DNA of 64,000 nt from Naegleria gruberi. Lineage: Eukaryota. Location: the NCBI GenBank assembly GCA_000004985.1, contig GG738891.1, one strand, 5' to 3'. Under the pieces are notes generated by a model, which did no database searches, was not told the DNA's origin, and saw nothing but the letters and a program-made list of their open reading frames with translations. Numbering within the stretch: position 1 is the first letter of the stretch; every line of letters starts with the position of its first letter. A program made the translations under genes and the position numbers. This document shows, in pieces, positions 1,470 to 56,410 of this stretch.

Positions 1470-4400
1470 TTAAACATGAATAATACAGTCTGCTTCATTT
1501 TGAACTGCTGAATTGTGAGATATCAAAATCACTTGTTGATTTTTAAACATACGTGACAGAATTCTAGAAACTAATTTCTGTTTCTCTTCATCCAAATTGG
1601 CATCACACTCATCTAAAATGTAGAACATTGATTTCTTAAAGGTAGCAATTGAAAACAAGAATGCCAAGCTAACCATTGTCTTCTCACCTCCACTAATTAG
1701 AGAAAGTTGAGAGGTATCTCCTTCCTTGTTTGAATTCTTTGATTTTACAATAATTTCGACACCTTCTGAAACTTTTTCACCGACTTTCTTCAAGGATGCA
1801 ATCTTATTTGGAAGCATGAGCTCTGTAAATTTTTGAAATAATTGTTGTACTTTTTCAAAGGCTACTTCATTATACTTTTCCACAACTTTTTGGCCACACG
1901 ATATTCCATCCATTAATACTTGACAACTTTTAGAAATCCACATTACTCTACTTTTACTATTCTCTAGAATAGTTTGCTTTTTCTCCAAATCAATTACATC
2001 AACCATCATGGCTTTCGATTTTTTAGCCAAAGTTTTGGCTTTCTTTTCTAGGCTTTCAACAATTACTTCTAAATCCTCAATTGATTTGTCAATAAATTTG
2101 GAATTTTCATTTTCATCAACCATAAGGTTGCTTTCACCCATCTGATTGACTACTTTCTGTTGTTTTTTGATTGACTTTTCTAGATTTTGAATTTTTTCAT
2201 GCAACACTTGCATGGAACTATTGATAGTAGCGAGGTTATCGGTCAGTATCTTGTTCTCTAATTCCATAAATACAAGTATTCATTGTAAATAACTTACTTT
2301 TTTCTTGCTCTGTCTTTTTAGCCTTGAGCGATAAATAATATTCTTTCTTCCTGACAAGCTCTATTTTCATACCATCCAAGTGTTTAATTTTGGACTTTGC
2401 CACATTTTCCTTCTCGATTATCTTGTCGTTCATTTGCTTGATCAGTTCTTCTGGGAATGAGTTATCAACATTTCTAGATAAATCCAACTCTATTTCATTT
2501 CTTTTACTCTCCATATCTCTTAATTCAATACGAAGCCTTTCAAAAGACTCTTGTTGTTCAAGTCCACTTCTGCAAGATAACAAGGTTTGCTTCAATATCA
2601 ACAATTTTGATTCGCTTTGTTCTAAGCTATTCAGCAATAGATCATGAGCAATCCTTGAGTCGTGTAATTCCTCTGTCATTGCTATGTTATTTTCATTCAA
2701 GGAAGACAATATCTCTTGTTCTTGTATTGTATAATTGAAACTTAATTCCATTTCCTGTAATATAGACTCCTTTGTTCTCATTGTTACCTCTACTTGTTTT
2801 AAAGTTCTCAATTTATGGTCTACATTTGCTCTTTTTTTAAGTGCACTATTTTCATAAATATTAGAAAGGTCACCACCAATAACTCTTCCAGGAAGATGCT
2901 TGACACCATTTAAAGTGCTTTTAATTTTAGATAATCTCAATAATTTTCTATACTTACACTGAAGATATACCGAGATCAACCAGTTGTTTTGACATATCCT
3001 CTGAAAGTGAAATCACAAAGTCACCAATGCATCTATCAATGGAAGGTTCTATTTTTTCATCGAAATTGAGAATATCTTTTGGAATGACGAAATTTAAGCC
3101 TCTCTTATCTCTAATCTGTCTTTGATATGCAATTCTTTTCTTTTGTTGAGAGGAATCCAATCTATCCAAGGGCCAGATAGTAATGGACCTCTTTCTTTGT
3201 GAGGCTGTTTGAAGAAGTTTTTCAGATTGGCTTGTTGTTTCTACAATGTGAGTTGAAAAATTCTTTCCCATAATAACAGAAAGTGGTAAAACATATTGTT
3301 GTGAATTACTTTCTAATGATATCATATTAACCAGAACTGTCTTTAAATCTTGTGAAATTTCTAAACTATTCAAGTATCGTTCGTCTCTTTCAACTTCCTC
3401 CTTCATTTTGCTAAATTGATTTTTCAAAACTAAATATTCATGTTTAAAGAGTGATAAACTCTCAGCTTCTACTATTGTAGTCCTTGCCATTTTTTCAGAT
3501 TTTTGACTGATGATCAATTCATTCTTCCTGATATTGTCTTGTAATGTTTGGATATTTGATTTGATACTTGATATTCTTTCTTTTACATTCATAATAAATT
3601 TCGATTCCACTTCAATTTGTTGTTGTATTTCATTGATATCCTTCACCTGGTGTATTGTTTGTGATTTTTCACTACATTGATAAGAATTATAATAATTATA
3701 AATACTTACTTATTCAGTAGACCGTTAATAGTTGCTATTTTGCTGTTAATAACTCTCAGTTCATCTCCTAAGTTTTCTCTCTCTAACTCTTGACGCTTTT
3801 TCCTTTCTTCGACTTTTGATTTTTCATTCAATAATGACCTATAATTATTATTCAATTGATCTACTTCCTCTTTAATAAATTCTAAATTTTCTGACAGTTC
3901 CGATATTTGTTTTTGCATTGGAACAATATCTACCGTCTTGGTGGTTGTCATTTCGGATTTCAACTTTTCCAATTCTAAACAAGCAATCTCACTCTCCACT
4001 TGTTGTTTCCTCTTCTCATAGTCTGTTTTTTTAAAAGTTAATTCCTCCATCATATACAAGTCTTTTGCTAGATGGTCCTCCAACTCGCTTCTCCTCTTCA
4101 ATGAAAGGGCAAGCCTTGCTTCTGTAATATCGTGTTCACATTTTTTTCTTTCACTTACAACAGCAAGCTTGTTTTTATCTTCTTCTATCAACCTCTCTAG
4201 TTTTACAATTTGCTCATTCATATGTTCCTCTGTTTGCTTCCATGATTGGATTTCATTCAAAGTCTTCTCGGCCTGTTGTTCAAAACTCAATCCTCCACTT
4301 CCATCTGTGATCATTTCTGCAATCTCCTTAGAGTTTTTAAACATTAGACTGACCACATGATTCTGGAAAATAACAAAGTTTGAAGAGTGTCTCAATCCAT

Positions 4401-4849
4401 GCTGGAAGAGGAAATTCTGTACAGCTCTTATTGTTACATGTTTTCCATCAAGTGTATACTTTCGTATTCCCTTTTCTTTGAAGAGAGTGACTGAAAGTTC
4501 ATGTTTTAAAGGAAAGCCTTCGTCATCACCCTGCATTGTGTTCTTTTCATCATCTCTTGAGAATAATAATTGAACACATGCATACGATTCCCTTTCACTT
4601 CCTCTCGTTGTAATTAAATCCTCCAACTTTGATACTCTCAATAATTTAATATCCAAGCCTAGAGCAAAACAAATTGCATCAACTTTACAAGTGTCAAAAC
4701 AAACATTTCAAGCAGAACATACCAACATTACTCTTTCCCTTTCCATTTGGTCCCACAATACAATTTATTCCATTGATGAAGGCTATTTCCTTTGGGGAAG
4801 AATTACTATAAGATTTGAATCCACTCATAAAGACATGTTGTAGATACAT
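1470..4849 (-). CDS. SMC-family chromosome ATPase (condensin SMC2/4-like N-terminus), 5 exons, about 1074 aa
   Basis: ATG at 4849 encodes MYLQHVFMSGFKSY...GPNGKGKSNV (Walker A). Exons on the minus strand are 4849..4723, 4682..3710, 3671..2958, 2917..2298 and 2257..1470, totalling 3222 nt in frame. Introns are 4683-4722 (40 nt, GTATGT..AAG), 3672-3709 (38 nt, GTAAGT..TAG), 2918-2957 (40 nt, GTAAGT..AAG) and 2258-2297 (40 nt, GTAAGT..TAG). The spliced protein restores the conserved VDAICFALG motif after Walker A, the hinge-end motif VTLNGVKHLPGRVIGGD, and a C-terminal LSGGEKTMVSLAFLF signature plus ILDECDA Walker B. Confidence 0.8.
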
Positions 4850-4887: not shown

Positions 4888-7131
4888 TTATTGGTGAAGT
4901 GAACATTCCTTCTCGAGCATATCAAGTTTGTCATTAATGAATTTTCTAAACTCTGGATTGCTTGGAATTTGAGAAGTGTCACCTATAAAACTTGAACTGA
5001 GAATACTTTCATTCACTCTGTATGATTCTCCCTTTTCAGTTTCTCCGTGAGAGAGAAAGGCATCAATATTATTTGAAACTTTTTCTTCAATAATTGTGGT
5101 AGTATCTTCTTCTCCACAGCTACTAATTTTACTTTGCTCCAAATCTATTTCTATTAATTGACTAGATTCTTCAGGATAACCTGATTGATTATAATCTTTC
5201 CTGTCAAATAGGATTCTATAGTGGGATTCTATATCCTGTGTTTCATTCTTGTCAATAGGTTCGTAATGTTCATCCTCATTTTCGTCTGTATCTAGAGATG
5301 CAATCTTCTTCAAACCCATTTCAATCTCTTCTATTCTCTTCTTCATAACACTCTTAAAGTTAGATTCTGAATCCTCACCAAAATCAAATTTGGTAAATGA
5401 GTTTGAGTTATCATTGACCACTGAAATATTTAAATCCTTCTCTGGTCTATCAGATTTGTTGTTTTGAGATGATTTTGGAGTAAATTTCAGAATTCGTAAT
5501 TCTTCCTCTTCTATTTCTCCCCAAACTCTCTTGTATTCCTCTTGTTCAAGTAGAATATTCTTTAGACTTATATTTACAGACCTAACATTTTCGTGTGAAT
5601 CTCTGACACCTTCAGCTCTAGGTTTTCGAGGAGCGGAACTTGGCCTCTTTGGAGTTGATGAAAAAGACATTTCGTCATGTTTTGGTAAAGAACTAGTTGG
5701 TCCTCTTCCAGAAAGTGCAGATGCTGGTCTTTGATTTCTGTTTTGTGATAGAGAAGTATTCTGTTCTGCACCAGAATACTCACTTCTCCTTGAGACAACC
5801 TTTGATTTTACGTGACCATATCGTTCTCTATTCTTCTTTGCTATTTCTTCCAGAGATGATTCTTTTGGAGTTTCAAAGGATTGAGGTCTGTTATTGCATC
5901 TACTATAACTCAAAGGACTTCTGGTATTACTTCTCCTAGATGACGAAGGCGTAGTTGGTCTTGTTACTCTATTAGAAATTATTGAATCATTTTCTTTTGA
6001 TTTAACTGACTTAGGTGGTAGGTCTGAAATTGATGAAACCACAGATCGAAAGACAACACTTTTTTGAAGTTGATCATCTAGATCTTGTATTTGCTCTAAA
6101 ATAATTTTCTCTTCTTTTTCAAACGGATCAAGTGGTTTTGGGACCTTTCTCTGATTGTATGGTACAGTTTTTTTTGGAGTTTCCACTACTGCTGATTGCA
6201 CAACTCTACTCCTTGGTGCAGAAGATGGCCTTTGAAGTTTGGTTGGTGATGTTAATTTCTCTGGAGTTTTACTGACATCTGGAGCATGTTGGGAATGTTT
6301 CCTTGATGAGTTGTTCAAAATTGAGTTTTGAGATGAATGTGATTGAAATTTTTCTGGTGATCTAATCAAGTTTGGTTGGAATTGAGGTTGTTGTGTGGTT
6401 GGTCTTGCTGAAGAGGGTCTTTTTAATTTCTGAGGAGGGCTTTGTTGAGAGACTGCCAAATACTTTTCTTCCATAGTATTTGGAGAATTCTTTAGTTTTT
6501 CTTGTCTAGCCTCCACTCTCTTTCTCCTTTCAATTTCATATTGTTTCGAGTGAGGAGATAAAGGTTGGCTCACGGTATTTGGATTTAATTTAGTTGGAGA
6601 AGTAGGAGAAGTATAATTATTTGCTAAACACACTTGCTGAGATTGATCTTTAGTGACACAAGATGAAGAATTAAAGGAGCGATCAATCATGGCCTTAATA
6701 TTCATGCTTTTCAATTCTTCCATTCTTTTCAAAAGATAGGAGGCATGAATGTCCTCCGATAATTGTTTGTGTTGTTCATGAGCATAATTAGTGGCTGCTT
6801 TCCTCACCTCCGAACAAATTGTTGGATTTGTATAATGTTGTTGCTCTGGAGAGGAAGACTGACCACCAACACTCCAACTTCCACTTGAATTATTGATTCC
6901 TCTAACACCACCTGGTGAAAAACATCTACTCCTCGATGAAGAAGAACGAACAGGACTTTCTTCGTCATATTCTTGATAATTTCCATCATCATTAAAATGA
7001 AAAAGTGAATTCTGTAATTCTCGTAGTTCTTCCTTCTTTTTTCTTCTCCTAGATCTGGACTTTTCTAGTAGTGATTTTACATAGGCTTCCTCCTTAGGGC
7101 GTAAAGATGAGGGAGAGGAATTACCTTGCAT
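4888..7131 (-). CDS. Hypothetical Ser/Pro/Arg-rich low-complexity protein (747 aa)
   Basis: Single long ORF with strongly biased composition (S/P/R/K/N) and no recognisable domain. Its stop lies 38 bp upstream of the SMC start on the same strand. Confidence 0.5.
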   Translation of the reverse strand: MQGNSSPSSLRPKEEAYVKSLLEKSRSRRRKKKEELRELQNSLFHFNDDGNYQEYDEESPVRSSSSRSRCFSPGGVRGINNSSGSWSVGGQSSSPEQQHYTNPTICSEVRKAATNYAHEQHKQLSEDIHASYLLKRMEELKSMNIKAMIDRSFNSSSCVTKDQSQQVCLANNYTSPTSPTKLNPNTVSQPLSPHSKQYEIERRKRVEARQEKLKNSPNTMEEKYLAVSQQSPPQKLKRPSSARPTTQQPQFQPNLIRSPEKFQSHSSQNSILNNSSRKHSQHAPDVSKTPEKLTSPTKLQRPSSAPRSRVVQSAVVETPKKTVPYNQRKVPKPLDPFEKEEKIILEQIQDLDDQLQKSVVFRSVVSSISDLPPKSVKSKENDSIISNRVTRPTTPSSSRRSNTRSPLSYSRCNNRPQSFETPKESSLEEIAKKNRERYGHVKSKVVSRRSEYSGAEQNTSLSQNRNQRPASALSGRGPTSSLPKHDEMSFSSTPKRPSSAPRKPRAEGVRDSHENVRSVNISLKNILLEQEEYKRVWGEIEEEELRILKFTPKSSQNNKSDRPEKDLNISVVNDNSNSFTKFDFGEDSESNFKSVMKKRIEEIEMGLKKIASLDTDENEDEHYEPIDKNETQDIESHYRILFDRKDYNQSGYPEESSQLIEIDLEQSKISSCGEEDTTTIIEEKVSNNIDAFLSHGETEKGESYRVNESILSSSFIGDTSQIPSNPEFRKFINDKLDMLEKECSLHQ

Positions 7132-8392
7132 TTTTTAAATGATAAGTCTCAAATAAATTTTAAGGGAAATCATCTGCCATCAAACACTTTTCAAATACAA
7201 ATTTTTGGAGGGAAATAACAGTAATGAATGATTGAAAGGATAATGGCTAAACTTTAATTAACTCGAAACATCTAGCAACCACAAACTTTGAAAATAATAT
7301 CAAGGTACAACAAAAGATAGCTCTAATTTAAAGTAAAACTCTGGAATGATATTTATTATTGCCGAAGGTCAAAATTGGGTTTAAAAAATGCTGAAAATGA
7401 GAAACTCTCATGATTCTTTCTTTGTTGGTGGATTTCTGGAAATCAGATTGTACTTTCAATAAATTTGAAGTGTACGTTATTCCACATTCATTAATCCTAG
7501 TTGTTGGTCTCCAAAAGAAAATCAACTAAATTGATTAAAACTTGTTCTTCTTGGCCATCATGGCTTGTTTATGAACCAAACACTTGTCTAAAATTAATCC
7601 AATATTATCTGAATGACAAACTGGTCTGAACTTGTTTCTTGTTGTTTGATGAATTTTCATGGTATTATTGTGGACCATAAGGCTAGCAAAATGAGAAGTA
7701 GATTCACGGGCTTGTGTCAACATTTTTAATTGGTTTTTGCGGTTTTAATTTGATCAAAGAGCAATAGTGCTTTTTTTTTCATTCCGTCTTTTACCGTTGA
7801 GGTAAGGGTATTAATAGATTCCAGCCTCATTGTGTTTTACAATGATTTAATCATCCAATGAAAAAACATCGCCCCTCTATTTTTAAAAACTCGGCCTTTT
7901 TGCTTTAGGTTTAAAAATTATCGTTGCCTTTTCGATAGTGACGCAGAACGGATGGTTTGCTTCCTTAATTCCAAGAGCCAAATGATAAACTTCACGGATT
8001 TAACGCTTCATTCTATTGGACCAATAGATGTTAAGAAAAATTTTCTATCAGCGCAACTTGTTCACCATTAAATGTTGGTTGTATCAAAACTGAGGATCCA
8101 ATACACAGAGATCTCACCTTAAAGCATTGTAATCTAATGGGTAATCTACAATTATTTAGTATTTGTGTAATGGAAAGATTGAACTGTTGATCAACTTCTG
8201 AATTTTGGAAAGAACAGTTGACAAAGTAAACAGGCAAACCAATATTTCACATATAGCACTGAACAACAAATACTGATGTAATCTTTATCAAATTCATCCA
8301 CATAATTACGCCTAAACGTGTTGAAGAAAGAGTTTTCAATAATTATTCGTCCAATAATTAATTTAATAATTTAAAATTGACAAATAGAAAAA

Positions 8393-15680: not shown

Positions 15681-17139
15681 TTATTTCTCCCAAAATTGTC
15701 TCAACATTTCTTCAACGTTTGAATAACCATTATTTCTTTCATACTTGGTGTTAAGTGATAGGATAAGTTCCAAAATTGCTTGACTAACTTCTTGCTTTTG
15801 ATGTGCTACCACGTGAACGAGTCTGGAGTATGTTAAAACAGCCAAATCAACAAAAGGAAGTGTCAACAAAGGAACAGTAGAAAAGTAGGGATTGGTTGCT
15901 GCCTGACTGGCAATATCCAAACTTAGAATCCAGGCTTCCTCAATATTATCTGGATCTGCCAAAAGGATCACAGCAAGCTTAAATCCTTTTTCTATAAAGA
16001 GATGAATCAAAAATGCTATGTTTCTATGTGATTCGGATTCTGCAGAGAAATCAAAATTGTTTTGAATTACTGTGTCGATATAGGATGAGCACAAGTCAAT
16101 TACCTTATAAGTTTGTGGAAGTTTTTCACGCTCAGTTGGAAGTTCGAATGTTGATTTCACATCCAAAAACTGTTTGGTTAATAAGGGGAAAAAATCTACA
16201 AGTCCTTGTGGGCCATTGTTTTCATAGCAAAGTGTGAAGTGCATTCCTAATTTGAGTAGTTCTAGCCATTTTTGTGTATTTTTCACAGCAATGCTTGAAT
16301 TTTCAGTGCAATCACTAACGAAGTATTTAACTAAATCCAAATACATACTTGCTTCCTTGTACCTCTTTCTAGCAAGATTATGTGATGCAAAATTAAGCAT
16401 GGACATACCAGCATAAATGTTTGTGTGATTATCGAAATGAGAAGCTACCAACAGCCTTGCATGCTGAAAACATAAATCAGAATATTGTTTTGAGCCTATT
16501 CTTTGCTCAGCCCACGCGACAATAGAAAATAAAAATGCAGAAACAGAATCGTCTAGTTCATCCAATGCATCAATCAAATTTTGCAATTCGTTTTTTGGCA
16601 CACTCTCAAAAATACTGAATGTTGTAAACACAAAAGTTCAGTAAAACAACTTACGTTGAATTATAAAACTTTAACGTATTTCTAACATCCAGATTTAACC
16701 CTTTCTTGGTTGAATTAACTGAATGATTAATTATAAAACATTGTTCATAGCATGGAGTTTTCTTTTTTTGCTTCTTTTGTACAGCTAGCGGTTTGAGATT
16801 TTTATATTCACATTGTTTCCCACTCTTTAAACAAGATGAACACGATGGAAGCAATTTATCGCATCGTTTGTGATGAAATCTACACAATGTGCAGGCATAC
16901 TCGCTCTTACTCTCCATGTTGTATGGATGATAGGGAACAACTTTTGTGGTACTATCTTGTGATGATTGTGGAGAAGAACTCTTCAGTTCTTTTGAAATAA
17001 TATCGACACTTATTTTCCTAGTTGGTAGTGGTCTACCTGAAGCTGATGATGACCCACCCGAGGCTTCCTTCAAACTTGAGCCATTACTACTCGAAGAAGA
17101 TTGTGATGGTGGGCTCCTATTGGCGGGTGAATTTGTCAT
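15681..17139 (-). CDS. Zn(II)2Cys6 (Gal4-type) binuclear-cluster transcription factor, 2 exons, 473 aa
   Basis: Exon 1 (17139..16655) carries CTLCRFHHKRCDKLLPSCSSCLKSGKQC, a perfect C-x2-C-x6-C-x6-C-x2-C-x6-C spacing. A 40-nt intron at 16615-16654 (GTAAGT..CAG, phase 2) joins it in frame to ORF 15681..16614 (...KFYNST|IFESVPKNEL...). Confidence 0.7.
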
Positions 17140-21243: not shown

Positions 21244-21589
21244 TTTTTTATCGTTAAAAATTTTAAAATTAAAAAATTTGGCGGGAATATCATGATCCTT
21301 AACAGTGAAACCATAAAAGAATTGTCGTATGCTGAATATTGAGAAATTGAAAAAATCACCATCATGTTGAAAAAATAAACTCCTCCAGTATCTTCATGAG
21401 AATACATTTCAACTTATTGAAGATCGTTGAGTGGAGATTCTGAACTGTATCTTGTTGGAAATGTATTTTGTTTTAAACTATTTCTCCAAATAAAATTTTC
21501 ACACCAATTAAGGATTGAAAAACACTTACCATTACAGTTTCCATATTAAACTCTATAAAGGGCGAGCTTTTCGACTCTACCTTAAAAAA

Positions 21590-23127
21590 ATGTCTAGAGT
21601 TTTCTCTTGCTACTCGTTACTGTTGTTTCTAGTGATTTGTACCTTGTGGATGGCTCAGATGAGTACTTCCCTTGTTCCTGTTAAGCAACCGTATATTATA
21701 TGGCCAGATTCCAAGACAGGAAATGGTAAGTGTTGTGATTTGATGAATGGAAAATCCTAAGATCCAATGTGCAGCTGTTGTTTACTTTAAGAATTCAGGA
21801 CCTTTCCAAACTGAAGTTTTGTGGGTTGGTGCTGCAGCATGGAATGATCAATATCAAGTAAGAAATAAGGTTGCTCAATTGGTAAGAGCTGGAATTGTGC
21901 CATTCATGTATGTTATTTAACAAATTGCATCATTAATGATATGATTTTTAAAGTAATTCTTATCAATTCGGAGACAATGGACTTAGAGGAAATTATGATT
22001 ATGCTGTAAAGTTTGATACAGAAGTTGCCAAAGTAAGTTTATAACAGAGTCAATTGTTTTTAAAGTGAGGAAAGGCGATTGGAAATTCATTTGCTATTAT
22101 TAATTTGGAAACTGAATGGGATGTTGATGAAGTTTTAGGAATTTTCCAATCAAATGCTGGTAAACAATGCTTGTTGGACAGAATTCAAGCTTTCAGAACC
22201 TATGCTCCAAATGCTGTTATTGTGAGCTCACCTGGTCTTTGGAAGCCAGCTTCATCTTATTCATTCTTTGCACCAATTGATAAGAAACTGAATCAAAGAG
22301 CAATGTTGAATCATATTGTCAACTCTTATGATAGTAATTGTGCAAGAACTCCATATGGTGGATTCTGGCAATATGGAGCCAAGTCAGCTAGCTCTGCTAT
22401 TGAGTTAATGCTTTCCAATGTAAACTCTAATTTTCAAAAAATTCAAGATGCTTGGGGTGATGAAGATTATGAATGGATTATGAGTGATGTAGCAGTTACT
22501 TCTTGTGGATGGGGAGATCAAAACCAAGCCCAAATTCTTCATGAAATTACCAATGTAAGTATTAAGAAAATGCCATACTTGTTATTTAATATCCATTCAA
22601 TAATTAAGAACATTGATTGTTTGTATGCTTCAGGCTTCCGTGGATACGTTTTGAGAAATTCTGGTCCAGATGTTAACGAAAGAGCTATGGGTATTCAAAA
22701 TGAAGGAATGTTCAAATTCACCAGTAATCAATACTCACCAGTTGTTCTTGGAAATGGTTTGAATAAGATGGTTTCATTCTTGAGAGGATCAAGTAAACCA
22801 GTTTGTTCTGGTGCTTCTAGCCCATCAAGTGGTGGAGGTAGTTCTGGAGGTTCTTCACCATCATCTTCCGATTTCACTATTAGAGGAGATCCAGGTATTA
22901 ATGAATGGTGGGTTGAATTATATGTTAATCCAGCTTCAAGTGTTAGATCCATAACTTTCAAATGCAATGGTCTAACAACCACATTGGACAAATCATCTTG
23001 GTCAGCAACTCAATTCTCTAAAGGACTTTCTTCAAGATGTCCAATTGGAACAAAAGCTGAAGTCACAGTTAATGGTCAAAAATACTCTATGGTTTATGGA
23101 ATTGCTCAACCTGCAAAGAAAATGTAA
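21590..23127 (+). CDS. Secreted modular protein: signal peptide, globular domain, Ser/Gly linker, small C-terminal beta-rich (carbohydrate-binding-like) module; 4 exons
   Basis: Exons are 21590..21725, 21775..21907, 21954..22032 and 22075..23127. Introns are 49 nt (GTAAGT..CAG), 46 nt (GTATGT..AAG) and 42 nt (GTAAGT..AAG). All junctions keep the frame and remove stops. The N-terminus MSRVFSCYSLLLFLVICTLW is a signal peptide. The linker CSGASSPSSGGGSSGGSSPSSS precedes a roughly 90-aa C-terminal domain. The catalytic family is not identified. Confidence 0.45.
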
Positions 23128-23199: not shown

Positions 23200-23622
23200 A
23201 TGTCATCAAGAAAGCAAAGTGCCAAACCAAAAGCCAAATTCAACAAGCCAGAATATTGTTTGAATTTTAGTGCATCGGAAATGATAACAATAACATCAGA
23301 AGATGGTTTTCAATTTTATATCGATAAGAGATGTGCTTCCTTTTGCAAAAGATTTAGAGAAGGTAAATAATCGTTATAATTTAATGGAGATAGGAAATAC
23401 AAAAATATTATTACTAATACAATAACAATAATCAAAACAGAAATTGATGAAGGAAAAACTGTAATTTGTGTAGACTATCCATCAAATATTGTTGAACAGG
23501 TTATTGAATACTTGTACTATAAACAAAGATATGATAATGAAGCTGAGAATAGACCTGAATTTCCAATTGATTTATACAACGCTCTCGATTTGATGACTGC
23601 AAGTTATGCTTTGGGGTGTTAA
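23200..23622 (+). CDS. Elongin C (SKP1-fold) homolog, 2 exons, 114 aa; not present in the ORF track
   Basis: Exons 23200..23362 and 23441..23622, with a 78-nt intron (GTAAAT..CAG, phase 1). The protein ...EYCLNFSASEMITITSEDGFQFYIDKRCA...VICVDYPSNIVEQVIEYLYYKQRY...EFPIDLYNALDLMTASYALGC aligns along its length with Elongin C, including the C-terminal LxC. AAAAAAATG start. Confidence 0.75.
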
Positions 23623-28133: not shown

Positions 28134-29261
28134 ATGGGCAATTCCTCATCATCAAAGTCGTCAATATCAACCTCTCTATTTAATGAAGCGGATGAAGAGG
28201 AATACGAGGAAGAACATGAGGAAGTAAAAGAAAGACCAAGAAGATGGTTGTTGGATTCTAGTTTTGAAGAAGATAATGCCATCACAGAAAGTGAAATTAA
28301 ATCGGGTGGAGGAGAGGAAACTTTCCATGCTTTGTTACAGAACGAGGAAATAATATCACGAATCTTGATGATGTATTGTATAGATTTGTTGGATAATCTA
28401 CTGACCTTGAGATTAGTGAATCGATCTTTTATGAAAATTGTTGATCAATTTAATTTTATTTCATTTCATGTATTTGAAAATGCGTCAATCGAATATGTTG
28501 TTGATGATGAAGATGTAAAACAACAACAATTAACATGTAAGCGAATGAGACTTGTTAGGAAAATTCTTGAAAATATAACTAGCAATAAGAGGCAAGATCT
28601 ACCATGCTTTTTATCAAACATCAGTAATAAGAGAGATTTATTATTTACATTTAATTTAAAGGAACGAGAGAATATTACAAAAATTTCAAATCCTTTTTTA
28701 CAAATTTCAAAATACTTGAGTACTGGAAAGATGGATCAATATTTTCTAATTCCTTCTATTGAAATTTATTTGGAAATTAATCAATCATCTGTTCCTGTTC
28801 ACTTTAACATGCTTTTAATATCAGAGGAAACATCAAGTTTTGAAGAATATTTATTTAGATATTCCATTTCAATATCAGAGGAAGATGAATGGGAGACTAA
28901 GGTTTTTCCAATGCATAAGAGACAATTCTTTTCGAGTCCAAAGAATAATGCTCATCAAGTTCAACCAATAATTAATCGATCCAATAATAGTATTAATAAT
29001 ACGCAGAAAATCAAAAACAGAGGAAAATACAAGATTGTATTTTCATTTTCCAATAATTTTCAATTACACATTTCAACAATAGATATTCAACATAATTACT
29101 CCAAAAGCATAGATATAGTTCCTCTATTATCGGAGGATTATCAGAACAAACAATTGGCAACAATTCAAAATTTGATTAGAGATGTGAAAATTTCATGTTC
29201 CTCATCTGATTTGAACATTTGCAAGAGGGTTTCTTTCAAAACAAGTTTTGGCATTTCCTGA
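28134..29261 (+). CDS. Hypothetical protein with an N-terminal MGNSSSS myristoylation-type motif, an acidic stretch and an F-box-like segment
   Basis: 375-aa ORF with AAAAAAGATG start. Gly2 is followed by a Ser-rich run. A segment EEIISRILMMYCIDLLDNLLTLRLVNRSFMKIV is F-box-like. No confident domain assignment. Confidence 0.4.
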   Translation: MGNSSSSKSSISTSLFNEADEEEYEEEHEEVKERPRRWLLDSSFEEDNAITESEIKSGGGEETFHALLQNEEIISRILMMYCIDLLDNLLTLRLVNRSFMKIVDQFNFISFHVFENASIEYVVDDEDVKQQQLTCKRMRLVRKILENITSNKRQDLPCFLSNISNKRDLLFTFNLKERENITKISNPFLQISKYLSTGKMDQYFLIPSIEIYLEINQSSVPVHFNMLLISEETSSFEEYLFRYSISISEEDEWETKVFPMHKRQFFSSPKNNAHQVQPIINRSNNSINNTQKIKNRGKYKIVFSFSNNFQLHISTIDIQHNYSKSIDIVPLLSEDYQNKQLATIQNLIRDVKISCSSSDLNICKRVSFKTSFGIS

Positions 29262-29483: not shown

Positions 29484-31831
29484 ATGATGGGAACAATTTC
29501 CCTCCCAAGTTGTTTGGCGCCTCTCACCACTATGAAACAATCATTTAATAAAAAACAAATGAACAACACCACGACCACAAACCTGCTGACGACAAGCAAC
29601 ACTCCTGCTACAGCAAATAGAAGTGAAGGAGTACAACAAATGAATACTTGTGGCCGAAGCAATACATCATCAACAATGCCAAGCAATATTCAACATGAAT
29701 ATACTATTGCTTCATCTCAAGTGCCAAATAATTATTCACGGGAATATACTTTTCTGAAAAACAATTCTAGGAGCAACTCTTCTGCACAGGAAATTAGTTC
29801 TTCTATTCAAGGACCATTCTCTGAAACAATGTCAATTAAAACTGAGAAGATAGCAGCTGGGATATCAGAAAGAGCAAATGTTTCTCCATTTTCTGAAAGT
29901 AAGCCAATAATTGCTTCTTCATGTATTGAAACATTTACAAATCCATACCATACTCCTTTACTGGGTACGCAATCAATGATCGAGCCTTGTGTACCAATAA
30001 GAAAGCTTCCAAACCTTACCATAAATGTAAACAATAATAGTAGCACTGCTGTCCTTGCATCAGCTGGTTCACATTCTGCTAAACCAAATCAAACTTCACC
30101 TCCTCCACCTTCCAATTTTCCAACAATTCCATTACTTCCAGCCAATTTCACAACAACTACCACTTTAAGTAGTGGTACTTGCACATCAGTGCTTGGCAAC
30201 TGTGGACCAATTCCATTTTCCTTTTCAAAGCCAACTAGTTCATTTGCAGAATTAGGAGAAATCATTTCTCAAGGTAACTTTGGAATACCTAATTCCTCAA
30301 CCTATTGTAATGATACCATTAGTTGCAATTCTACTACTAGCTCTACTTTTGAAGAACCTAAGAAAGTCAAGAATAGAAAAGAAAAATCACTCACCATGAT
30401 TTGCAGCAAGTTTATCCAATACTATGAAGAAAAGGCTAATAGCCCAACAACTAGCGCTCAATCAAAGGGTGACATTAAGATTGAAGAAGCTGTTAACACA
30501 CTAGGTATTGAAAAGAGAAGAATTTATGATATTTTAAATGTCCTCGAAAGTATTTCTATTGTAACAAAAGTTGGTGTTTCATGCTATAAATTCAATGGAA
30601 CAAAGTGCCTCAACGCTACTCTTGAACAAATGAAAAACAGTGCTTTCGTAGATCCACTCCTTTTTGAAGGTATTCAATCACTCCCAAAAAATCCACAAAA
30701 CGAACCAATTATTAAGAGTTTATCAAAGTTTAAACAATCATCTATGACTCATACTTCAAGATCGAACACATTGACATCATTGAGCAGGCTCTTGATTATG
30801 TGTTTCTTGGCAACTGAAGTTAAAGAAATTACACAAGATCAACTTTTGGCCATTGTGCTAAAAGATTCTACCGAAAAGAGTAAGTTGTCAAAGAAATTTT
30901 ATTCTAATTATGATAATTAATAGCGAGAACAAGAAGATTAAATGATATTGTAAACATTTTATCTGCCATTCACTTACTTGAAAAGAAAACTGAAAAGAGT
31001 GTTAATGTTTTCAAGTGGCTTGGTGGATCTTACGCAAATGAAAACAAACCAGTCAGTTCTATCATATCTCCTTCTAAAATGCCTCTGAAAAAGAGAAAGA
31101 GAGTTAAGGCTGGATCACAAGGATCAGATAACGAAACATCTCCATTAACCATTGAAGGTGGTCCTTCTTTTTCTATTGTTGATATACCACAACCTGAAAA
31201 TTCAAAGAACGAAATTTCTGAAATTAGTCCAGTGCCAATCTCTACAGTTTCTCCATCATTTTTCCAAAGCAGTACAACCACTTGTAAAACTCCAACATCT
31301 AGTGGTAGCAACAGCAGTGGTGGTCTTCATTTTCAATTCAGATCGCCACCAAGTAAGAAGAATAAGACCATTCCACTTTCTTCATTCACAACTGTTTTGG
31401 GAGGCGCACCAAAGATTTCTCCAAAGAACTTGAATGAAATCTTCAAGTCAAGCGAGCAACCAATTACGAATAATTCAAATATTCCTGTCCAAAGCCCAAC
31501 CATTCCAAATGCTGGTATTACCACAACATTTGGTAAATTGGGCTCTGGAAGCATTTTTTCACAAACTTCTGGTCAAGTTTCACCTCGAGTAATGCCTTCA
31601 GCTATTAAGGCAACCATTTTCAACGAAAATAATAAGGAAAATGTCTGTAAGCCAACAGTTTCTCAAACTACAAAGAAACCATTATCACCTAACGACAATG
31701 CACAACAAGGTAAAATCACTTTCAAGATTCGTGGTACCAATGAAACAACTTTAGCTCCAAGACAACCACTTGGTCTTAAAACAGACAATGGCGTTAATAA
31801 TCAACAAAATATTAAATCTCCAAGACCTTAA
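29484..31831 (+). CDS. Atypical E2F (E2F7/8/DEL-like) transcription factor with two E2F winged-helix DNA-binding domains, 2 exons
   Basis: The first domain is KSLTMICSKFIQYYEE...IEKRRIYDILNVLESISIVTKVGVSCYKFNG, in exon 1. A 44-nt intron at 30880-30923 (GTAAGT..TAG, phase 1) joins it to ...TRTRRLNDIVNILSAIHLLEKKTEKSVNVFKWLGG, the second E2F/DP-type domain. The frame then continues into ORF 31079..31831 (MPLKKRKR... NLS-like). The start codon is uncertain: 29484, 29532 or 29559, the last having the A-rich context. Confidence 0.7.
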
Positions 31832-31847: not shown

Positions 31848-34141
31848 TTATTTATTCAACAGCTTCATTAATCGTTCAGAATCTACTACAGATGCATCTT
31901 TTTCAAGTTTCTTTTTACAAGTAAGGTAGGCACGTTCAGCTTGTGCAACAATATTGTTCAGCTCTATGGCTCCAGAAAGATCAATGCATGCCTTCAAAAT
32001 ATCATCAAATCTATACTTTTGTGTGACAACCTCGTTTCTAATTTTTTGTAACATGGCGTAACAGATGAAAAGATGGAAGTGGTTTCCATATATTCCAGTC
32101 CATAACTTTTCCCACATATTTTTGCATGATTCAAAATCAAACTCTCTTTTCAACTCCACTAACACCCATCTGAAACAGAAATACAAGTTAAGTGCATCAA
32201 CAGATTGTAAGTGACGGTAGAATTCAGGATCAAGTAATTTGATCAAAGAAACCAATGACACTAATTGATCTTCCATTCCTTGAGAATTCATCTCAAAGTT
32301 ACTTTGTCTAGTTTCCATTATACAAGCAAAACACCAGAATGATTCTACTTCATCTTTCATAATTTCTAACATAATACTGGCATAATCTCCCATTCCTTGT
32401 ACATAACTCAAATCAAAATTGTAGAAAGTGTATGTCAACAGGATGTCATGTAACATAACCAACCATTCACTATCATCACTAGCATACATTGGATGAGTTC
32501 TGTCTGTTCTAATAACATCCTTTTCTATTCTGCTCTTTCTGTCTCTATAAAGAGCAAATCTAGATTCTTGAATGGTAGAAATTGTTGTCCATTGAGATTT
32601 ATAACCATAGTATTCCTTTCTCTTTTCCTCGAGCAGAACTTCTCTTTCACTATAGGTCGAGTTATGAGGATAAAATCCTAACAAGAATTTCCAAACTTCC
32701 TTTCTTATACTATTTTCAACTCCTCCATAGTAAATTTTTTCCTTAAGAGCTTGGAAATCCTTAATTCTACCTTCCTCATCAAAGTATGTCTTCCAAGATT
32801 CAGCAGTGATTGGAGTATCCATTCTTGGAGTCCAACCAATATCTTCTGGTGATTCAATTTTAGGCTTTTGTTGTTGTACATCTATAACTTTGACTGGTTC
32901 AATATCGTTGAAATAATCATCTACTTCCTTGTTTTCCTCTGGCAAATAATTATCATATATTGATTCCTTAAGAGATTCTCTTATTATAGGTGGTGGAACT
33001 TTCTTCTTGTCCTCTAATTAACGATTAAGATCAAATGATATAATTTAACAAAAAACATACCTTCCATCTTTTGCCTTACTTTGAGTAAACTCATAGCAAG
33101 ATTTTCCGAGCCTCCAACTTTGTTATCTACTGAAAGTTCATCTGATTGATTGAATAGTGCACTTGTTAAATCTCTAGCTCCTTTTGTAATTTTACTTCCC
33201 CACTCCAAGATTTGCCAGTATCCATCCTTCTCCTTATACATATCATCAAAATAGTCATCAAAATTAAATTGGTTGATGGTTTTTGATGCTTCTGATGACT
33301 CTGCAGAAATGTAGTAAATATTCTGATCTTTACTACTCTTTTTCAATGTCACTTGTCTATTAAATTCTGAAATGAAATCTACCAATCCACCATCATGGAA
33401 AAACAATGGAGGATAAGTTGTTTCATCTCTCATTGTGATTAAAAGAAAATGATATCCTAATTTTGGAGTTTGTTTTTTGAAATGAGAAATATCTACTGTT
33501 CTCACAACCAATGCGTATGCTGATTCATTTCTTTGAACAAATGGGCTATTATTTTGACTTATATCTACAATACTTCCTTGTGATGGACTACTTGCTAAAT
33601 TTGAGTTTGGAACTCTATGAGAATATCTATCAGGTGTTACAATTTCTCCATTAGATCTTTCATGTAAAACTAAATCGCTATTAAAAGTACAAAGTGTTGA
33701 ATATGGACACCAAACTACATAATAACAAGATCTTAAAACTGGTTGTACATTAGATGTTTCAACAATAAGAGATTTAGCTGTCATTACACTTCTACCAGTA
33801 TTTTCTGTAGTTTTTTCAGTCAAATCCCTCACTAAAAACATAGCACCAGGAATTTGGTCAACAATATCCGAACCTTTTTGATTTGTTGTTTGAATAGAAG
33901 TGTGGATATAGATATCATCCTTTCTCACTACAATTGAATACTTTGAAGATGCTAAATTTTGAGAAGAAAGCAATTCCCTAATATTGGGAGTATCTCCTCT
34001 CACATAGAATGAACTTCCGAATGTTGAATCTGAATTAAAAACTACTTGTGGTGATCCTTCTTCACTTTCATCATCTGATGATTCATGATGATAAATCAAA
34101 ACACTATTATTTAAATCATCCATTCTAAATATAATATACAA
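31848..34141 (-). CDS. TBC-domain Rab GTPase-activating protein (TBC1D15/17 / Gyp7-like) with an N-terminal RabGAP-N region, 2 exons
   Basis: ORF 33014..34141 (N-terminal region including LFFHDGG) joins ORF 31848..32945 through a 47-nt intron at 33014-33060 (GTATGT..TAG, phase 1), giving ...KMEG|EDKKKVPPPII...ENKEVDDYF. The TBC domain has RTDRTHPMY (Arg finger) and YVQGMGDY (Gln finger). Confidence 0.75.
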
Positions 34142-34458: not shown

Positions 34459-36363
34459 ATGGGCAAACGAAAACATTCAAAAATTGCTAAAGAAAATCAT
34501 CAAGTTGATAATGATGACCAAATAGAAGAAGAGAAAATAGTGGTTTTACCTCCTAAGGTATCAACAAAAAAGAAGAAGAAAAAGAAGAGAAAGAAAACTT
34601 CTCATGCATCTATCTCTTCATCATCAGTCTCGACAATTAATTCTGGTAATTCTATTGGATCGGAAATGATTAAAAAATGGAATCAAATTATTAGTTTGCA
34701 AGATACACTTCAATTAATATTGGGTTTCATTCCCGATTATTTATTGGAAAGAACGATGAGATTTGTGAATAGGGATTTTTATTTGGCTTCTTCTGTGGTT
34801 TTTAGAGAATTGAAAACTTGTTTGAAACTTTCTAAATTTAATGGTGACGAGAAAATATTGGAGAGTTGGAAAAAGTTTAAAAATCTGAAGAGTATTGACT
34901 TGGAATTTAAATTAGGGCATGAGGAGTTTAATGCTTCTGGTATGACAGATTTTGGAATTGAAACATGTATAATTAACTTTACAAATTCAGTATTTTCAAA
35001 GCCTCTTGTGGGAACTAAATGGGCTGATACTTTGAGATACTTAGATATTTGTATCCAGCATCAACAGTTTTGTCTATTATTTGAGTTGAGTTTACATACC
35101 TTAATAGTAGAACTCCAAGAAGATAGTGAAATAGATCTAAAGATAGGAAAAGAAGAAAAACCTCTATTCAACAGTTTGACATATTTTAATTATTCTTTAT
35201 CAACATTCAATAATATGGAGGAATTCATCAATAGACTTGTTAACCTTACAACGTTAAGGAGTGATGATGAAATGAATATTGAGTTACTGAAACTACCAAA
35301 AATTAAGATGTATGACTGCGCACAGTTTGAACTAGAAGGAATACCAAAGGCATTCCCAAGGTTGGAACACCTCAAATCTTCCTCCTTTCTTTCAACAGCA
35401 GATATATTACAAGCACTAACTCTAAAAACCTTAAAAACTTTATCACTTAACGTAAACACAAGTTCATTTGATTTACTATCAGACGCAATTTTTAGCCTAC
35501 CACTCCTAGAAAAACTATCATTGTTTATCAACTTTAGTAGCTCAGAAAATAATGATGTCATTGCATCAAAGCCATTACCTTATTTGAAAAAGGTCAAATT
35601 GGTTCTTATTGATTATGATGATGAAATACCTCCAGTATCTATTAGTCATTTCAATCAATGTGAAAATATTGAGAAAATTAGTTTTTTAGATGAAGCGCGA
35701 CAAATATCAGTAGATCTTAATGATTTTTCTCCTTTTTCCAAGCTGAAAAGTATTCTAATAACGTGTAAATCTGTTTCTAATTGGAAAAATCCTGTATCTA
35801 CATTAGAAATTTTGTCCATTACTACAGAAAAAGCAAGTAATATAACCCTGATAGGACTCGATAAATTGAGAGAGATAGATTTTGTGTCAGAAAATACGAG
35901 TAGTTTAGTTAAATACTTTAATCATCATGCACCTTGTGATGGCCTTAAAAAATTGAACATTTCTGGAAAAGACATTTTGAAATACCCATTCCCATCAAAT
36001 CTGGAAAGTCTCACCATTAGTAATTTGGAACTCAAAGAAACTGATGATAATTTTACCAACATTTTAAAGAAACAAACTAATCTTAGAAAAATAGTAATTG
36101 AAGAATCCAAACTTGACCTTCTCTCAATACTAGAAACATTAACATGCCTCATTCATCAAGTTACGAAAATATCCATTGCTGGTAAATCATCCCCAACCCA
36201 TTCAGAATCCAAATACATCACCAATCTACTCAGAGTCCTCTCCATTTTCGATTCAAAGAGAATAATATTGGAATTAACTGAATTCAGTTTAACATTCTCT
36301 CATCAAGGAACAAGATATCTCCGTTCTCAAATCAAGTCTCGTTTATTTGAATATTGGAAGTGA
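34459..36363 (+). CDS. Leucine-rich-repeat protein (F-box/LRR-like), hypothetical
   Basis: Long ORF with CAAAAAAAATG start at 34459. It begins with a K-rich NLS-like N-terminus, then many L-x-x-L-x-L leucine-rich segments. The C-terminal end overlaps, in another frame, an ORF with no ATG (see findings). Confidence 0.5.
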   Translation: MGKRKHSKIAKENHQVDNDDQIEEEKIVVLPPKVSTKKKKKKKRKKTSHASISSSSVSTINSGNSIGSEMIKKWNQIISLQDTLQLILGFIPDYLLERTMRFVNRDFYLASSVVFRELKTCLKLSKFNGDEKILESWKKFKNLKSIDLEFKLGHEEFNASGMTDFGIETCIINFTNSVFSKPLVGTKWADTLRYLDICIQHQQFCLLFELSLHTLIVELQEDSEIDLKIGKEEKPLFNSLTYFNYSLSTFNNMEEFINRLVNLTTLRSDDEMNIELLKLPKIKMYDCAQFELEGIPKAFPRLEHLKSSSFLSTADILQALTLKTLKTLSLNVNTSSFDLLSDAIFSLPLLEKLSLFINFSSSENNDVIASKPLPYLKKVKLVLIDYDDEIPPVSISHFNQCENIEKISFLDEARQISVDLNDFSPFSKLKSILITCKSVSNWKNPVSTLEILSITTEKASNITLIGLDKLREIDFVSENTSSLVKYFNHHAPCDGLKKLNISGKDILKYPFPSNLESLTISNLELKETDDNFTNILKKQTNLRKIVIEESKLDLLSILETLTCLIHQVTKISIAGKSSPTHSESKYITNLLRVLSIFDSKRIILELTEFSLTFSHQGTRYLRSQIKSRLFEYWK

Positions 36364-37112
36364 GGATCAATTAAATGGAACTCAATTCTGTAATTCAATA
36401 ACAAAGAATATTTGTGACAAATTTTGTGATCTATTCAGAAAGGACATTCAAAATACATCAGTTAGAAAGGCATTCAAAGCATTCAAACCTCACTTGAATG
36501 TAATTTATAGAGATGTTATTCTTTCAATAGGTAAACAATTGATTTATGATTGTACATGTTGTGATGCAAAGGTTGGATGGTTACACATATTTAACATTAA
36601 AAATTGCCCCAATATCTTTACTCCAATAGAGGTTCAAATAGTGGAACAGAAACCAACCAAGAAAAATTCCAAGAGGTAAGTGCATACTAAAAATTAGAGA
36701 TCTAATACTAGATAGTAAGAATACAGTACAAAATATTGAAATGGCAAACACCTTTACCAAAGAACTTTCCCATTTTCAATGGATAATTGAATTAGAGAAT
36801 GATCAACCACAAGTAGTTATTCTAGTCAATGATTTTCTAAATGCCTTTGTAAAAATTTGTAAAATATTCCCAGAAATACCCAACTTTACCAAAGTACGAG
36901 CCAAAACAGCTCCATCAAACACTTTTCAAGAGTGTTACATAATGAAATTTAACAATACTTTTGCCTGTCTACCAATAACAATAGATGCAGGAAATATTGA
37001 TATAGAATCAGATATCCAATCAATTGTAAATATTCACTTGGAACGAATTGATAAATTTTTGGAAACTATACAAACAGAACTATCCCCACAAATAACCAAT
37101 ATTAAACTATAG
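36347..37112 (+). CDS. Uncertain coding segment: an ORF with no ATG (36347..36675) spliced by a 40-nt intron to ORF 36716..37112; possibly a 3' continuation of the LRR gene or a separate small gene (36741..37112)
   Basis: The 110-codon ORF 36347..36679 contains no Met codon, yet it is open for 129 codons from 36293. A donor GTAAGT at 36676 and acceptor TAG at 36713-36715 give a 40-nt, frame-preserving intron into the ORF that contains ATG 36741 (MANTFTKELSHFQW...). Confidence 0.3.
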
Positions 37113-37810: not shown

Positions 37811-38013
37811 ATGGCTTTGTCCACTGTTCACGGAAAAGATTTAAAGATTTTAGGCGCCATCGTATTCGCTAGGTAAGTTGATGATGATGTTTAGTAGTGG
37901 AGATTAATTGATGATGATTATAGAGTGTTGGTTAAAGCATACAGGGAATACACTAGACCAGATTATGCTGAAGTCACAAAGGCTGCCATTGGAAACGCAC
38001 CAGCAAGCAATTA
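37811..38013 (+). CDS. Small 2-exon gene encoding a roughly 50-aa hydrophobic protein (unassigned)
   Basis: AAAAAAAATG at 37811. Exon 1 is 37811..37872. A 51-nt intron at 37873-37923 (GTAAGT..TAG, phase 2) leads to exon 2 ending with TAA at 38011-38013. The product is MALSTVHGKDLKILGAIVFARVLVKAYREYTRPDYAEVTKAAIGNAPASN. Confidence 0.4.
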
Positions 38014-38068
38014 AATTTTCGGATGTTTGATAGTTTTAAAGTGATTGTACAATTTAAAATATATATAT

Positions 38069-41510: not shown

Positions 41511-41792
41511 TTAGTTTTGCTTGTTGTTAACGGCAGCCTTTGGGGTGCTTCCGACCTTCCATCCGTTTCTTTCTCTTCTCAAAGCGAGCTTCAAATAACG
41601 ACATCTACCAGTACCAGTGGTGTTTCTTCTAATAGCCTTATAAGCCCATTGGTACTTTCTGATCTTTGGTGATGGGAATCCGCAAGAAGCACAAGTCTTC
41701 TTTTGAATATGGTAAGATCTTCTATCACATCTTGGACACATACCGTGTGTCTTGGTGTGTCTCAAACCGAATGATTGGGTACCCTTGGTCAT
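41511..41792 (-). CDS. RPL37: 60S ribosomal protein L37e
   Basis: 93-aa protein [49 protein letters not shown]..., with the C4 zinc ribbon and full-length similarity to L37e. Codons are biased toward C/T-ending preferred codons, consistent with high expression. Confidence 0.92.
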
Positions 41793-41794
41793 TT

Positions 41795-41837
41795 CTAATT
41801 TATTGATGAATAATGCAACTACGAGGGCAATACTTAC
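41795..41837 (-). other. Putative 43-nt 5'-UTR intron immediately upstream of the RPL37 start codon
   Basis: The minus strand reads ...gaaaa|GTAAGTattgccctcgtagttgcattattcatcaataaatTAG|aaATGacc. The canonical GTAAGT donor and TAG acceptor sit 2 nt before the ATG, and the size matches the other introns in this window. Confidence 0.35.
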
Positions 41838-42218
41838 TTTTCTAGTGACGTTTTTTTTTTCAACAAATTTTCAGGTTGATAGAAATTTTGGGTTGGTATT
41901 CTTTACAATGAAACTTTTTTGCTGGTAAAATGTAACTGGAAAAAATGTTGATGCTTTGCTAGCGTTAGTGCACGGAGTATCAATCATCAATTATTCATAC
42001 TCATATTAGTACATAGATGATTATTATATAGAGATTGAATCATCATTATTGAACAAAATATATTAAATAAATATAATTTTTCTCATCAAACTTATAATAT
42101 TCGGAAGATGGTAATCTAGGAAGACCATCACTGAACAGAATTTATTCTCAAGACTTGGTAATGAACATTATCATTGAAGAAGAAGTAATTGATAATTTAA
42201 TAATAAAACAATTAAAAA

Positions 42219-46558: not shown

Positions 46559-47021
46559 ATGGTGATTGAATGAGTGCTGACATTTTTTGTTGATTGGAAA
46601 ATCTCTTTCAAAGGTTGAATAAGCGTTTTATTGAAAATAGCAGAGTTCCAATTTCATTGATTGTTGTTGAGGTTTCTAATAGAATTATCGGAAATGATGA
46701 ACTATGCTGGTGGTAGTATTGCACAATACAAAGTTCCGACTTCATTGCAATAGCTGAAAAGTAATTTCCGCTTATCCATCAAAATGAAACATTTCTATTG
46801 GTTGATTCTGCACCAATCTTTCAAACTTGTTACATTTCATCGACTAATTTATGATGGAAGCACATTACAACAACATTTTAGTTGAGGAATGGTTTCGCCT
46901 AGACATTAATCATATCTATCATGGTCCTGTGCTGTTAAGTTTAACAAAATAATTCTATCTAATAAACTATCAACACTATTTCTATTATTTCAATAAGTCC
47001 ATAATTGGTTTTTTTATATAA

Positions 47022-49275: not shown

Positions 49276-49670
49276 TTTTTTGTGCACGAGAGCTTAATGT
49301 AAATGTTAAGGCAGTGTAGGCAACAAAACACTTGAAACCAGAAAGCGGTTCGAGGAAAATTCATGTGATGGAGTGAGACAGAGAGAAAGTCCAATCACAG
49401 TGTGTATCTATTTGTTGAATGCTTAATGTGGCAGAAGGTAACCCCACTTCAAGAAATGCAGTTGTACGACATTTACGTACTAGAGATTAGAGATGGGGAA
49501 TAAAACTAGCTTTATGTTTCGAGGCTAATTGGAATTTGGATAGAAGACAACTTTACACAAGATGCCATGTTTGCTAATGTTGGATAGAATCTAATTGGAA
49601 GAATCGAAATGATCATCGAATGTTTATTTAAAAATACGCGCAAAAACTGGTCTTTCAAAAACAAAACAAA

Positions 49671-56393: not shown

Positions 56394-56410
56394 TTTTTTA
56401 ATTTAGTTTT

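Follow-up and report, generated by a model that had tools for sequence, protein, structure and literature searches.

Seventeen short intervals in 64,000 nucleotides (nt) of DNA from Naegleria gruberi NEG-M (contig GG738891.1 of assembly GCA_000004985.1; the whole stretch is called the window below) were proposed as introns in an initial annotation which relied on the sequence and its open reading frames (ORFs). Our analysis indicates that these intervals are almost certainly ordinary U2-type GT-AG spliceosomal introns of the nuclear genome, near the smallest size handled by a spliceosome. The basis for this assignment comprises the splice-site dinucleotides, the restoration of reading frames, an enrichment over chance, two spliced products identical to public proteins, and nine to ten intron positions conserved in sister species. 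Removal from N. gruberi transcripts, the use of branch points and the mode of recognition are what we infer for these introns. The strong 5' splice site, mostly GTAAGT, would pair with the U1 small nuclear RNA (snRNA), and the AT-rich introns, most of them 38-54 nt long, would presumably be recognised as whole units (intron definition). Such recognition across the intron is what one expects at total lengths of about 40-50 nt. The snRNAs U1-U6 were reported in Naegleria lovaniensis (PMC6125883).

GT opens and AG closes each of the 17 proposed introns, precisely at the coordinates and on the strand assigned to them, and the same is true of two introns added in this study (22555-22608 and 41795-41837, both described below). 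The lengths are 38 (two introns), 40 (five), 42, 44 (two), 45, 46, 47, 48, 49, 51 and 78 nt, with a median of 44 nt. The length range of 36-57 nt given at first was loose, as the shortest listed intron has 38 nt and the lengths leave a gap between 51 nt and the 78-nt outlier, which is indeed present. The donors are GTAAGT (10), GTATGT (4), GTGAGT (1), GTAGGT (1) and GTAAAT (1), in agreement with a GTRAGT-like consensus of the 5' splice site. The initial restriction to the first three hexamers thus describes 15 of the 17 introns, but neither the second intron of the WD-repeat-like gene (GTAGGT) nor the 78-nt intron (GTAAAT). The acceptor AG is preceded by A, T or C. Lengths of the classes 3n, 3n+1 and 3n+2 occurred five, seven and five times, without bias towards or against multiples of three, which matches the expectation for true introns. 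The mean guanine-cytosine (GC) content of the introns is approximately 0.25, compared with about 0.32-0.33 for the window. At the 13 donors listed by a strict-motif scan, read-through is blocked within at most 20 codons. Coding-region introns occur in about 10 of the approximately 34 genes of the window (29%), in line with the earlier estimate that about two thirds of the genes have no intron.

The enrichment over chance was assessed by a scan of both strands for GTAAGT, GTATGT or GTGAGT followed by TAG, AAG or CAG 34-60 nt later. A site was scored when its removal joined two ORFs of at least 60 codons and read-through was blocked, and 200 sets of permuted hexamers with random acceptor triplets served as null. 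The real motif yielded 10 ORF-joining sites among 87 candidates; the permuted sets gave a mean of 1.0 among 165 candidates and a maximum of 6. The real motif joins long ORFs about ten times as often as permuted motifs. Moreover, 12 of the 21 GTAAGT hexamers on both strands of the window are donors of listed introns or of the two added ones.

Support from outside the window was obtained for 14 of the 17 introns, either by public N. gruberi models, by intron positions in sister species or by the gap-free junction in a TBC-domain gene. Six products of the window are identical to N. gruberi RefSeq proteins (XP_002673415.1, XP_002673417.1, XP_002673351.1, XP_002673347.1, XP_002673348.1 and XP_002673425.1), all of which are recorded on one 339,217-bp contig. 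These identities, rather than the intron pattern, assign the window to strain NEG-M. Four listed introns are present in public N. gruberi models, one in a Zn2Cys6 gene and three in a gene for a secreted protein. For the comparison with sister species, orthologous loci were taken and the annotated proteins were mapped back onto the DNA. Nine to ten introns in the SMC, E2F7/8-like, WD-repeat-like and Elongin C genes share position and phase with introns in orthologues of N. lovaniensis or Naegleria fowleri; among the nine, the third WD intron agrees within one alignment column, and the tenth is the second SMC intron, with the same phase nearby. The annotation of N. lovaniensis was made with RNA sequencing data via BRAKER1 (PMC6125883), so that its introns carry indirect transcript support. 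After splicing, nine of the ten proposed genes form one continuous ORF that starts with ATG. The initial statement that each junction restores the frame holds for these nine; in the remaining gene, named small3, the intron joins two ORFs but the start codon is lacking. The gene family names were upheld by Pfam, with matches to SMC, Zn_clus, two E2F_TDP stretches, RabGAP-TBC with a weak PH_RBD, and TPR with zf-MYND.

The SMC-family gene (1470-4849, minus strand), publicly named 'structural maintenance of chromosome 2', consists of five exons. Its introns are located at 4683-4722 (40 nt, GTATGT..AAG, phase 1), 3672-3709 (38 nt, GTAAGT..TAG, phase 2), 2918-2957 (40 nt, GTAAGT..AAG, phase 2) and 2258-2297 (40 nt, GTAAGT..TAG, phase 1). 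The unspliced reading encounters a stop nine codons inside intron 1, and removal of the four introns converts four stop-bounded ORF pieces into a single ORF of 3222 nt encoding 1073 amino acids (aa). The spliced protein exhibits a head-hinge-head architecture with GPNGKGKS (Walker A), the hinge, the signature LISGGEK and ILDECD (Walker B), and Pfam assigned SMC_N to residues 2-1072 in addition to SMC_hinge. Junction 1 restores GKGKSNVVDAICFALG. The N. lovaniensis orthologue (P0002, 1135 aa) aligned end to end through all four junctions, including KSNVVDAICFALG and GISSVTLNGVKHLPGRVIGGD, and GISSV/TLNGVKHLPGR is conserved across junction 3 (here and below, the slash marks the junction). The orthologous gene has four short introns of 60, 43, 49 and 54 nt. 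The first, third and fourth of them (60, 49 and 54 nt) coincide in alignment column and phase with SMC introns 1, 3 and 4 of N. gruberi, and the 43-nt intron shares the phase of intron 2 at a distance of eight residues in a poorly aligned coiled coil. Among solved structures, Smc2 heads were the best matches and aligned without a gap across junction 1. Full-length Smc2 chains were the best eukaryotic matches, at an E value of only about 1e-27, and archaeal and bacterial Smc heads scored similarly. The protein is unusually divergent, with only about 40% identity to its N. lovaniensis orthologue, and a word-indexed search returned two Naegleria proteins first and then mainly actinobacterial SMCs. 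The gene may encode the canonical condensin SMC2 or a fast-evolving paralogue. An in-frame GTRAGT candidate inside the SMC ORF (4096-4158) was rejected as an intron because the orthologues carry matching residues there.

In the WD-repeat-like gene (38069-40850, minus strand), the introns lie at 40618-40665 (48 nt, GTGAGT..TAG, phase 2), 39986-40029 (44 nt, GTAGGT..CAG, phase 2) and 39743-39780 (38 nt, GTATGT..AAG, phase 0). N. lovaniensis has introns of 59 and 45 nt at the same column and phase as introns 1 and 2, and another, of 48 nt, agrees with intron 3 in phase and to within one column in position. The exon breaks recur in a third Naegleria contig (L007). The E2F7/8-like gene (29484-31831, plus strand) is interrupted once, at 30880-30923 (44 nt, GTAAGT..TAG, phase 1), within ...KDSTEK/TRTRRLNDIVNILSA; an intron of 50 nt in N. 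lovaniensis and one of 53 nt in N. fowleri have identical flanking peptide, position and phase. Splicing had been said to reconstitute conserved motifs, and the SMC and E2F junctions do fall within sequence conserved among orthologues. Pfam found two E2F_TDP stretches in the E2F7/8-like protein, and the best solved relative was E2F8. A concatenated query of 1463 aa that opened with 246 residues of the E2F DNA-binding region retrieved only E2F relatives; these included the proteins of N. fowleri and N. lovaniensis and no N. gruberi entry, a result that points to, without proving, the lack of a public N. gruberi model for this gene.

The TBC RabGAP gene (31848-34123, minus strand) contains an intron at 33014-33060 (47 nt, GTATGT..TAG, phase 1). 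Pfam detected RabGAP-TBC together with a weak PH_RBD match. The spliced protein aligned gap-free across the junction to the orthologues from N. lovaniensis and N. fowleri. The N. lovaniensis gene has no intron and that of N. fowleri has one of 161 nt at a different site (L002, 5543-7945; L003, 5407-7976), a pattern across the three species which indicates intron turnover within the genus.

The Zn2Cys6 gene (15681-17139, minus strand) has a 40-nt intron at 16615-16654 (GTAAGT..CAG). Its spliced product (472 aa, Pfam Zn_clus) is identical to XP_002673417.1. The initial view that the genes take their true form only after removal of the introns is borne out, as by this identity and by the 1073-aa SMC ORF. 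The intron is unchanged base for base in a 99%-identical environmental contig (L004). The metagenome ERR1078381 (PRJEB11402; contigs L004, L005 and L008) contains a Naegleria approximately 99% identical to NEG-M. Prokaryote-style gene calling in this metagenome splits intron-containing genes, for example the Zn2Cys6 gene into 162 aa and 316 aa, and such fragments are found in large protein collections.

A gene for Elongin C (23200-23622, plus strand) harbours the 78-nt outlier at 23363-23440 (GTAAAT..CAG, phase 1). The spliced protein matches Elongin-C chains. In N. fowleri, an intron of 70 nt (GTAGGT..CAG) agrees with the 78-nt one in position and phase. Read-through meets a stop codon two codons into the intron; when the intron was read by eye, use of its internal AG sites also led to stops, and no alternative site with an open frame was found.

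Some observations weigh against the interpretation as spliceosomal introns. In a HMMER alignment to human Elongin C, a gap of 6+2 residues falls precisely on the junction, which is the kind of finding that had been named in advance as a refutation. N. fowleri Elongin C shares both the shorter loop and the position of the intron, and the gap is taken to be a lineage feature of the protein. A simple search for a branch-point-like YTRAY, placed 7-23 nt ahead of the 3' splice site, succeeded in no more than 10 of the 17 introns, and several introns have none by this pattern. Comparative support did not extend to three introns, those of a TPR-MYND gene, a 50-aa gene and small3, for which the assignment draws on the consensus donor and ORF logic. 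Finally, the mean intron length published for N. gruberi is 203 bp (PMC8296547), much above the 38-54 nt, with one intron of 78 nt, in the window.

The three introns just named could lie outside single genes: the TPR-MYND locus would then consist of two adjacent genes, the 50-aa reading frame would have arisen by chance and small3 would be a dead remnant, its intron no longer of consequence. We regard this as unlikely. Neither an orthologue nor a public model was found for any of the three. All of them have the donor GTAAGT, which is rare outside introns in the window. The TPR-MYND intron (48099-48143, minus strand, 45 nt, GTAAGT..AAG, phase 0; gene 47022-49364) brings ORFs of 417 and 358 codons into a single frame, whereas read-through ends after eight codons; the resulting protein has TPR repeats at the N-terminus and zf-MYND at the C-terminus (Pfam). 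The intron of the 50-aa gene (37873-37923, plus strand, 51 nt, GTAAGT..TAG; gene 37811-38014) is the weakest of the set. Its removal extends a 21-codon ORF to 50 aa, and the product showed no match in Pfam or among solved structures. In a near-identical environmental contig the sole insertion or deletion near this gene is a 3-nt insertion inside the proposed intron, and the exons are unchanged.

The small3 intron (36676-36715, plus strand, 40 nt, GTAAGT..TAG) joins ORFs of 127 and 131 codons, and exon 1 of this gene, which is 5'-truncated in the assembly, has no ATG. In the 99%-identical environmental contig L008, the same intron joins an ATG-started exon 1 of 255 codons to exon 2, which results in an intact two-exon ORF of 386 aa. 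The start codon is missing in the window because the assembly lacks 565 bp at 36343/36344 that are present in L008 (positions 243-807, reverse-complemented). These 565 bp hold the upstream gene's stop codon, a spacer between the two genes, and the beginning of small3, with its ATG and about 140 codons. With the loss of the upstream stop codon, XP_002673351.1 ends in the foreign-frame ...LFEYWK. The absence may reflect a true deletion, a difference between haplotypes or a fault of the assembly, and an assembly gap is probable. Two introns that would fuse XP_002673351.1 to small3 were considered and rejected, 36360-36406 for the wrong frame and 36360-36438 as unnecessary given the difference from L008.

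Two deposited N. gruberi models, P0001 (753 aa) for the SMC gene and P0128 (542 aa) for the WD-repeat-like gene, disagree with the junctions proposed here. Exon tables of the public models were rebuilt by mapping the proteins back to the DNA. P0001 is 100% identical to the spliced SMC protein in the overlap and lacks aa 1-90 and three internal blocks. It starts at an internal methionine (4536) and uses donors 2-4 of the short introns with acceptors 299, 388 and 118 nt away. P0128 comprises only the last exon, beginning downstream of WD intron 3, and lacks the first 341 residues. If these models were right, the SMC gene would have long introns and an internal start and the WD gene would be limited to its last exon; GTAAGT donors and TAG or CAG acceptors bound the long SMC introns as well. 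This is nevertheless very improbable. The sequence skipped or omitted by P0001 includes the Walker A head as well as the hinge motif TLNGVKHLPGRVIGGD, both of which are conserved in N. lovaniensis, and the 341 residues absent from P0128 show an identity of about 50% to N. lovaniensis and to the third Naegleria contig. N. lovaniensis has short introns at the positions proposed here in both genes. An SMC protein without the Walker A motif would have no ATP-binding head. As judged from the orthologous sequences, both public models are wrong or truncated, and the versions with four short SMC introns and three WD introns are the better ones.

Sequencing or assembly frameshifts, or pseudogene decay, are a practically negligible explanation of the ORF breaks: local problems do exist in this assembly, such as the 565 bp absent relative to L008 and an unexplained frame change at the start of a Sir2-domain gene, but errors would not bring GT..AG ends, a GTAAGT consensus, narrow lengths and AT-richness to every break, would not reappear in two other species with codon and phase unchanged, and would not be found base for base in an independent environmental contig, as is the Zn2Cys6 intron.

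The gene for the secreted protein (21590-23127, plus strand) contains, apart from the three listed introns, a fourth one that had been overlooked. The listed introns are at 21726-21774 (49 nt, GTAAGT..CAG), with homologues aligning across the junction, at 21908-21953 (46 nt, GTATGT..AAG), where the conserved VP(F/Y)I spans the junction, and at 22033-22074 (42 nt, GTAAGT..AAG), where the conserved (V/I)AKAIG does so. All three are part of XP_002673348.1, but their removal alone does not suffice to obtain this protein; the model becomes identical to it when the 54-nt intron at 22555-22608 (GTAAGT..AAG), which the earlier model had kept in, is also removed. If retained, this intron adds 18 aa that are absent from the eight aligned homologues covering the region, and its removal results in gap-free alignment to 10 homologues. 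The intron is in frame and free of stop codons, so that the ORF remains unbroken and the intron is invisible on an ORF track. Reading of ORF tracks is blind to in-frame introns of this kind.

A second addition concerns the gene for ribosomal protein L37e (coding sequence 41514-41792, minus strand). A 43-nt element at 41795-41837 (minus strand, GTAAGT..TAG), which was likewise missed, ends 3 nt before the ATG and is likely an intron in the 5' untranslated region (UTR) of RPL37. In N. lovaniensis and the third Naegleria contig, a GTAAGT..CAG or GTAAGT..TAG element is found at the same place, downstream of a common AAAATTTGTTGAAAAAAA motif. In the window this motif is located at 41851-41871 (minus strand), upstream of the candidate intron; it may be a promoter or transcription-start element. 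Upstream of a SET-domain gene, a 52-nt GTAAGT..ATAG element (21478-21529, minus strand) is preceded by a short ATG-GAA-ACT-GTA-ATG, and this arrangement may represent a first mini-exon or a 5' UTR intron.

Several further candidates in the window were not retained. An intron at 56382-56434 (GTAAGA..AAG) would fuse a 2097-codon ORF to the next one, which is a separate PIG-X gene as in N. lovaniensis. For the in-frame GTRAGT candidate at 5724-5783 in a 747-aa gene, the orthologues have matching residues. The gene at 28137-29258 needs no upstream exon, as it starts with MGNSSS like its orthologues. A comparison of the whole window with Rfam found nothing above threshold. The Sir2-domain ORF (44945-46627, minus strand) has a conserved N-terminal region but no in-frame ATG. 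An ATG at 46583 with the peptide MSALIQSPFAKR matches the N-terminus of the N. fowleri protein; it is one frame off and about 25 nt upstream, with no room for an intron (46500-46630). The frame change may reflect an erroneous shift within an A/T run, or the lesion may be real. The N. fowleri annotation gives the N-terminal part of the Sir2 gene as a separate gene of 237 aa. The region 7134-8381 comprises 1.2 kb without a long ORF and holds a 62-codon ORF on the minus strand (7723-7535), whose C-terminal part is conserved in an unannotated gap of N. lovaniensis (72% DNA identity over 105 nt).

Short canonical introns in N. gruberi are biology that is already known; the NEG-M genome and its spliceosomal introns were reportedly described by Fritz-Laylin et al. 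in 2010 (Cell 140:631). Useful by-products of this analysis are the corrections of gene models, one hidden intron and one probable assembly gap. It is possible, and we suggest this tentatively, that the 2010 annotation mishandles very short introns systematically, by choosing distant acceptors at the cost of coding sequence, by placing starts at internal methionines downstream of introns that went unrecognised, or by leaving some genes with introns without a model. In that case the published mean of 203 bp would be inflated and the real length distribution would be a tight peak near 40-55 nt; judging from this one window, over-long predicted introns would help to explain that mean. N. gruberi is a standard reference proteome for the reconstruction of the last eukaryotic common ancestor, and any scoring of presence, absence or domains from this proteome inherits such gene-model errors. 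If the errors are systematic, re-annotation with short introns would alter a sizeable share of the reference proteome in studies of early eukaryotes.

The window agrees with the published N. gruberi genome, which has 41 Mb, 33% GC and 1.7 exons per gene (PMC8296547), in being gene-dense, intron-poor and of 33% GC, and four of its introns are already part of RefSeq. At least two public N. gruberi models in the window, those of the SMC and WD-repeat-like genes, depart from the structure supported by orthologues. The introns of N. lovaniensis and N. fowleri are likewise of the GT-AG type with GTAAGT-like donors and mostly 43-70 nt long; for the same introns they are slightly longer, with 43-60 nt compared to 38-48 nt in N. 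gruberi. Narrow, short length distributions and canonical splice sites also characterize Acrasis kona, compared here by its published summary only, with introns reported as 9-95 bp (PMC11589745), which shows that the pattern is not unique to one taxon. The description of the short introns as a strong taxonomic signature was overstated: they fit Naegleria and its relatives, but short GT-AG introns in a gene-dense, AT-rich genome are not confined to this group.

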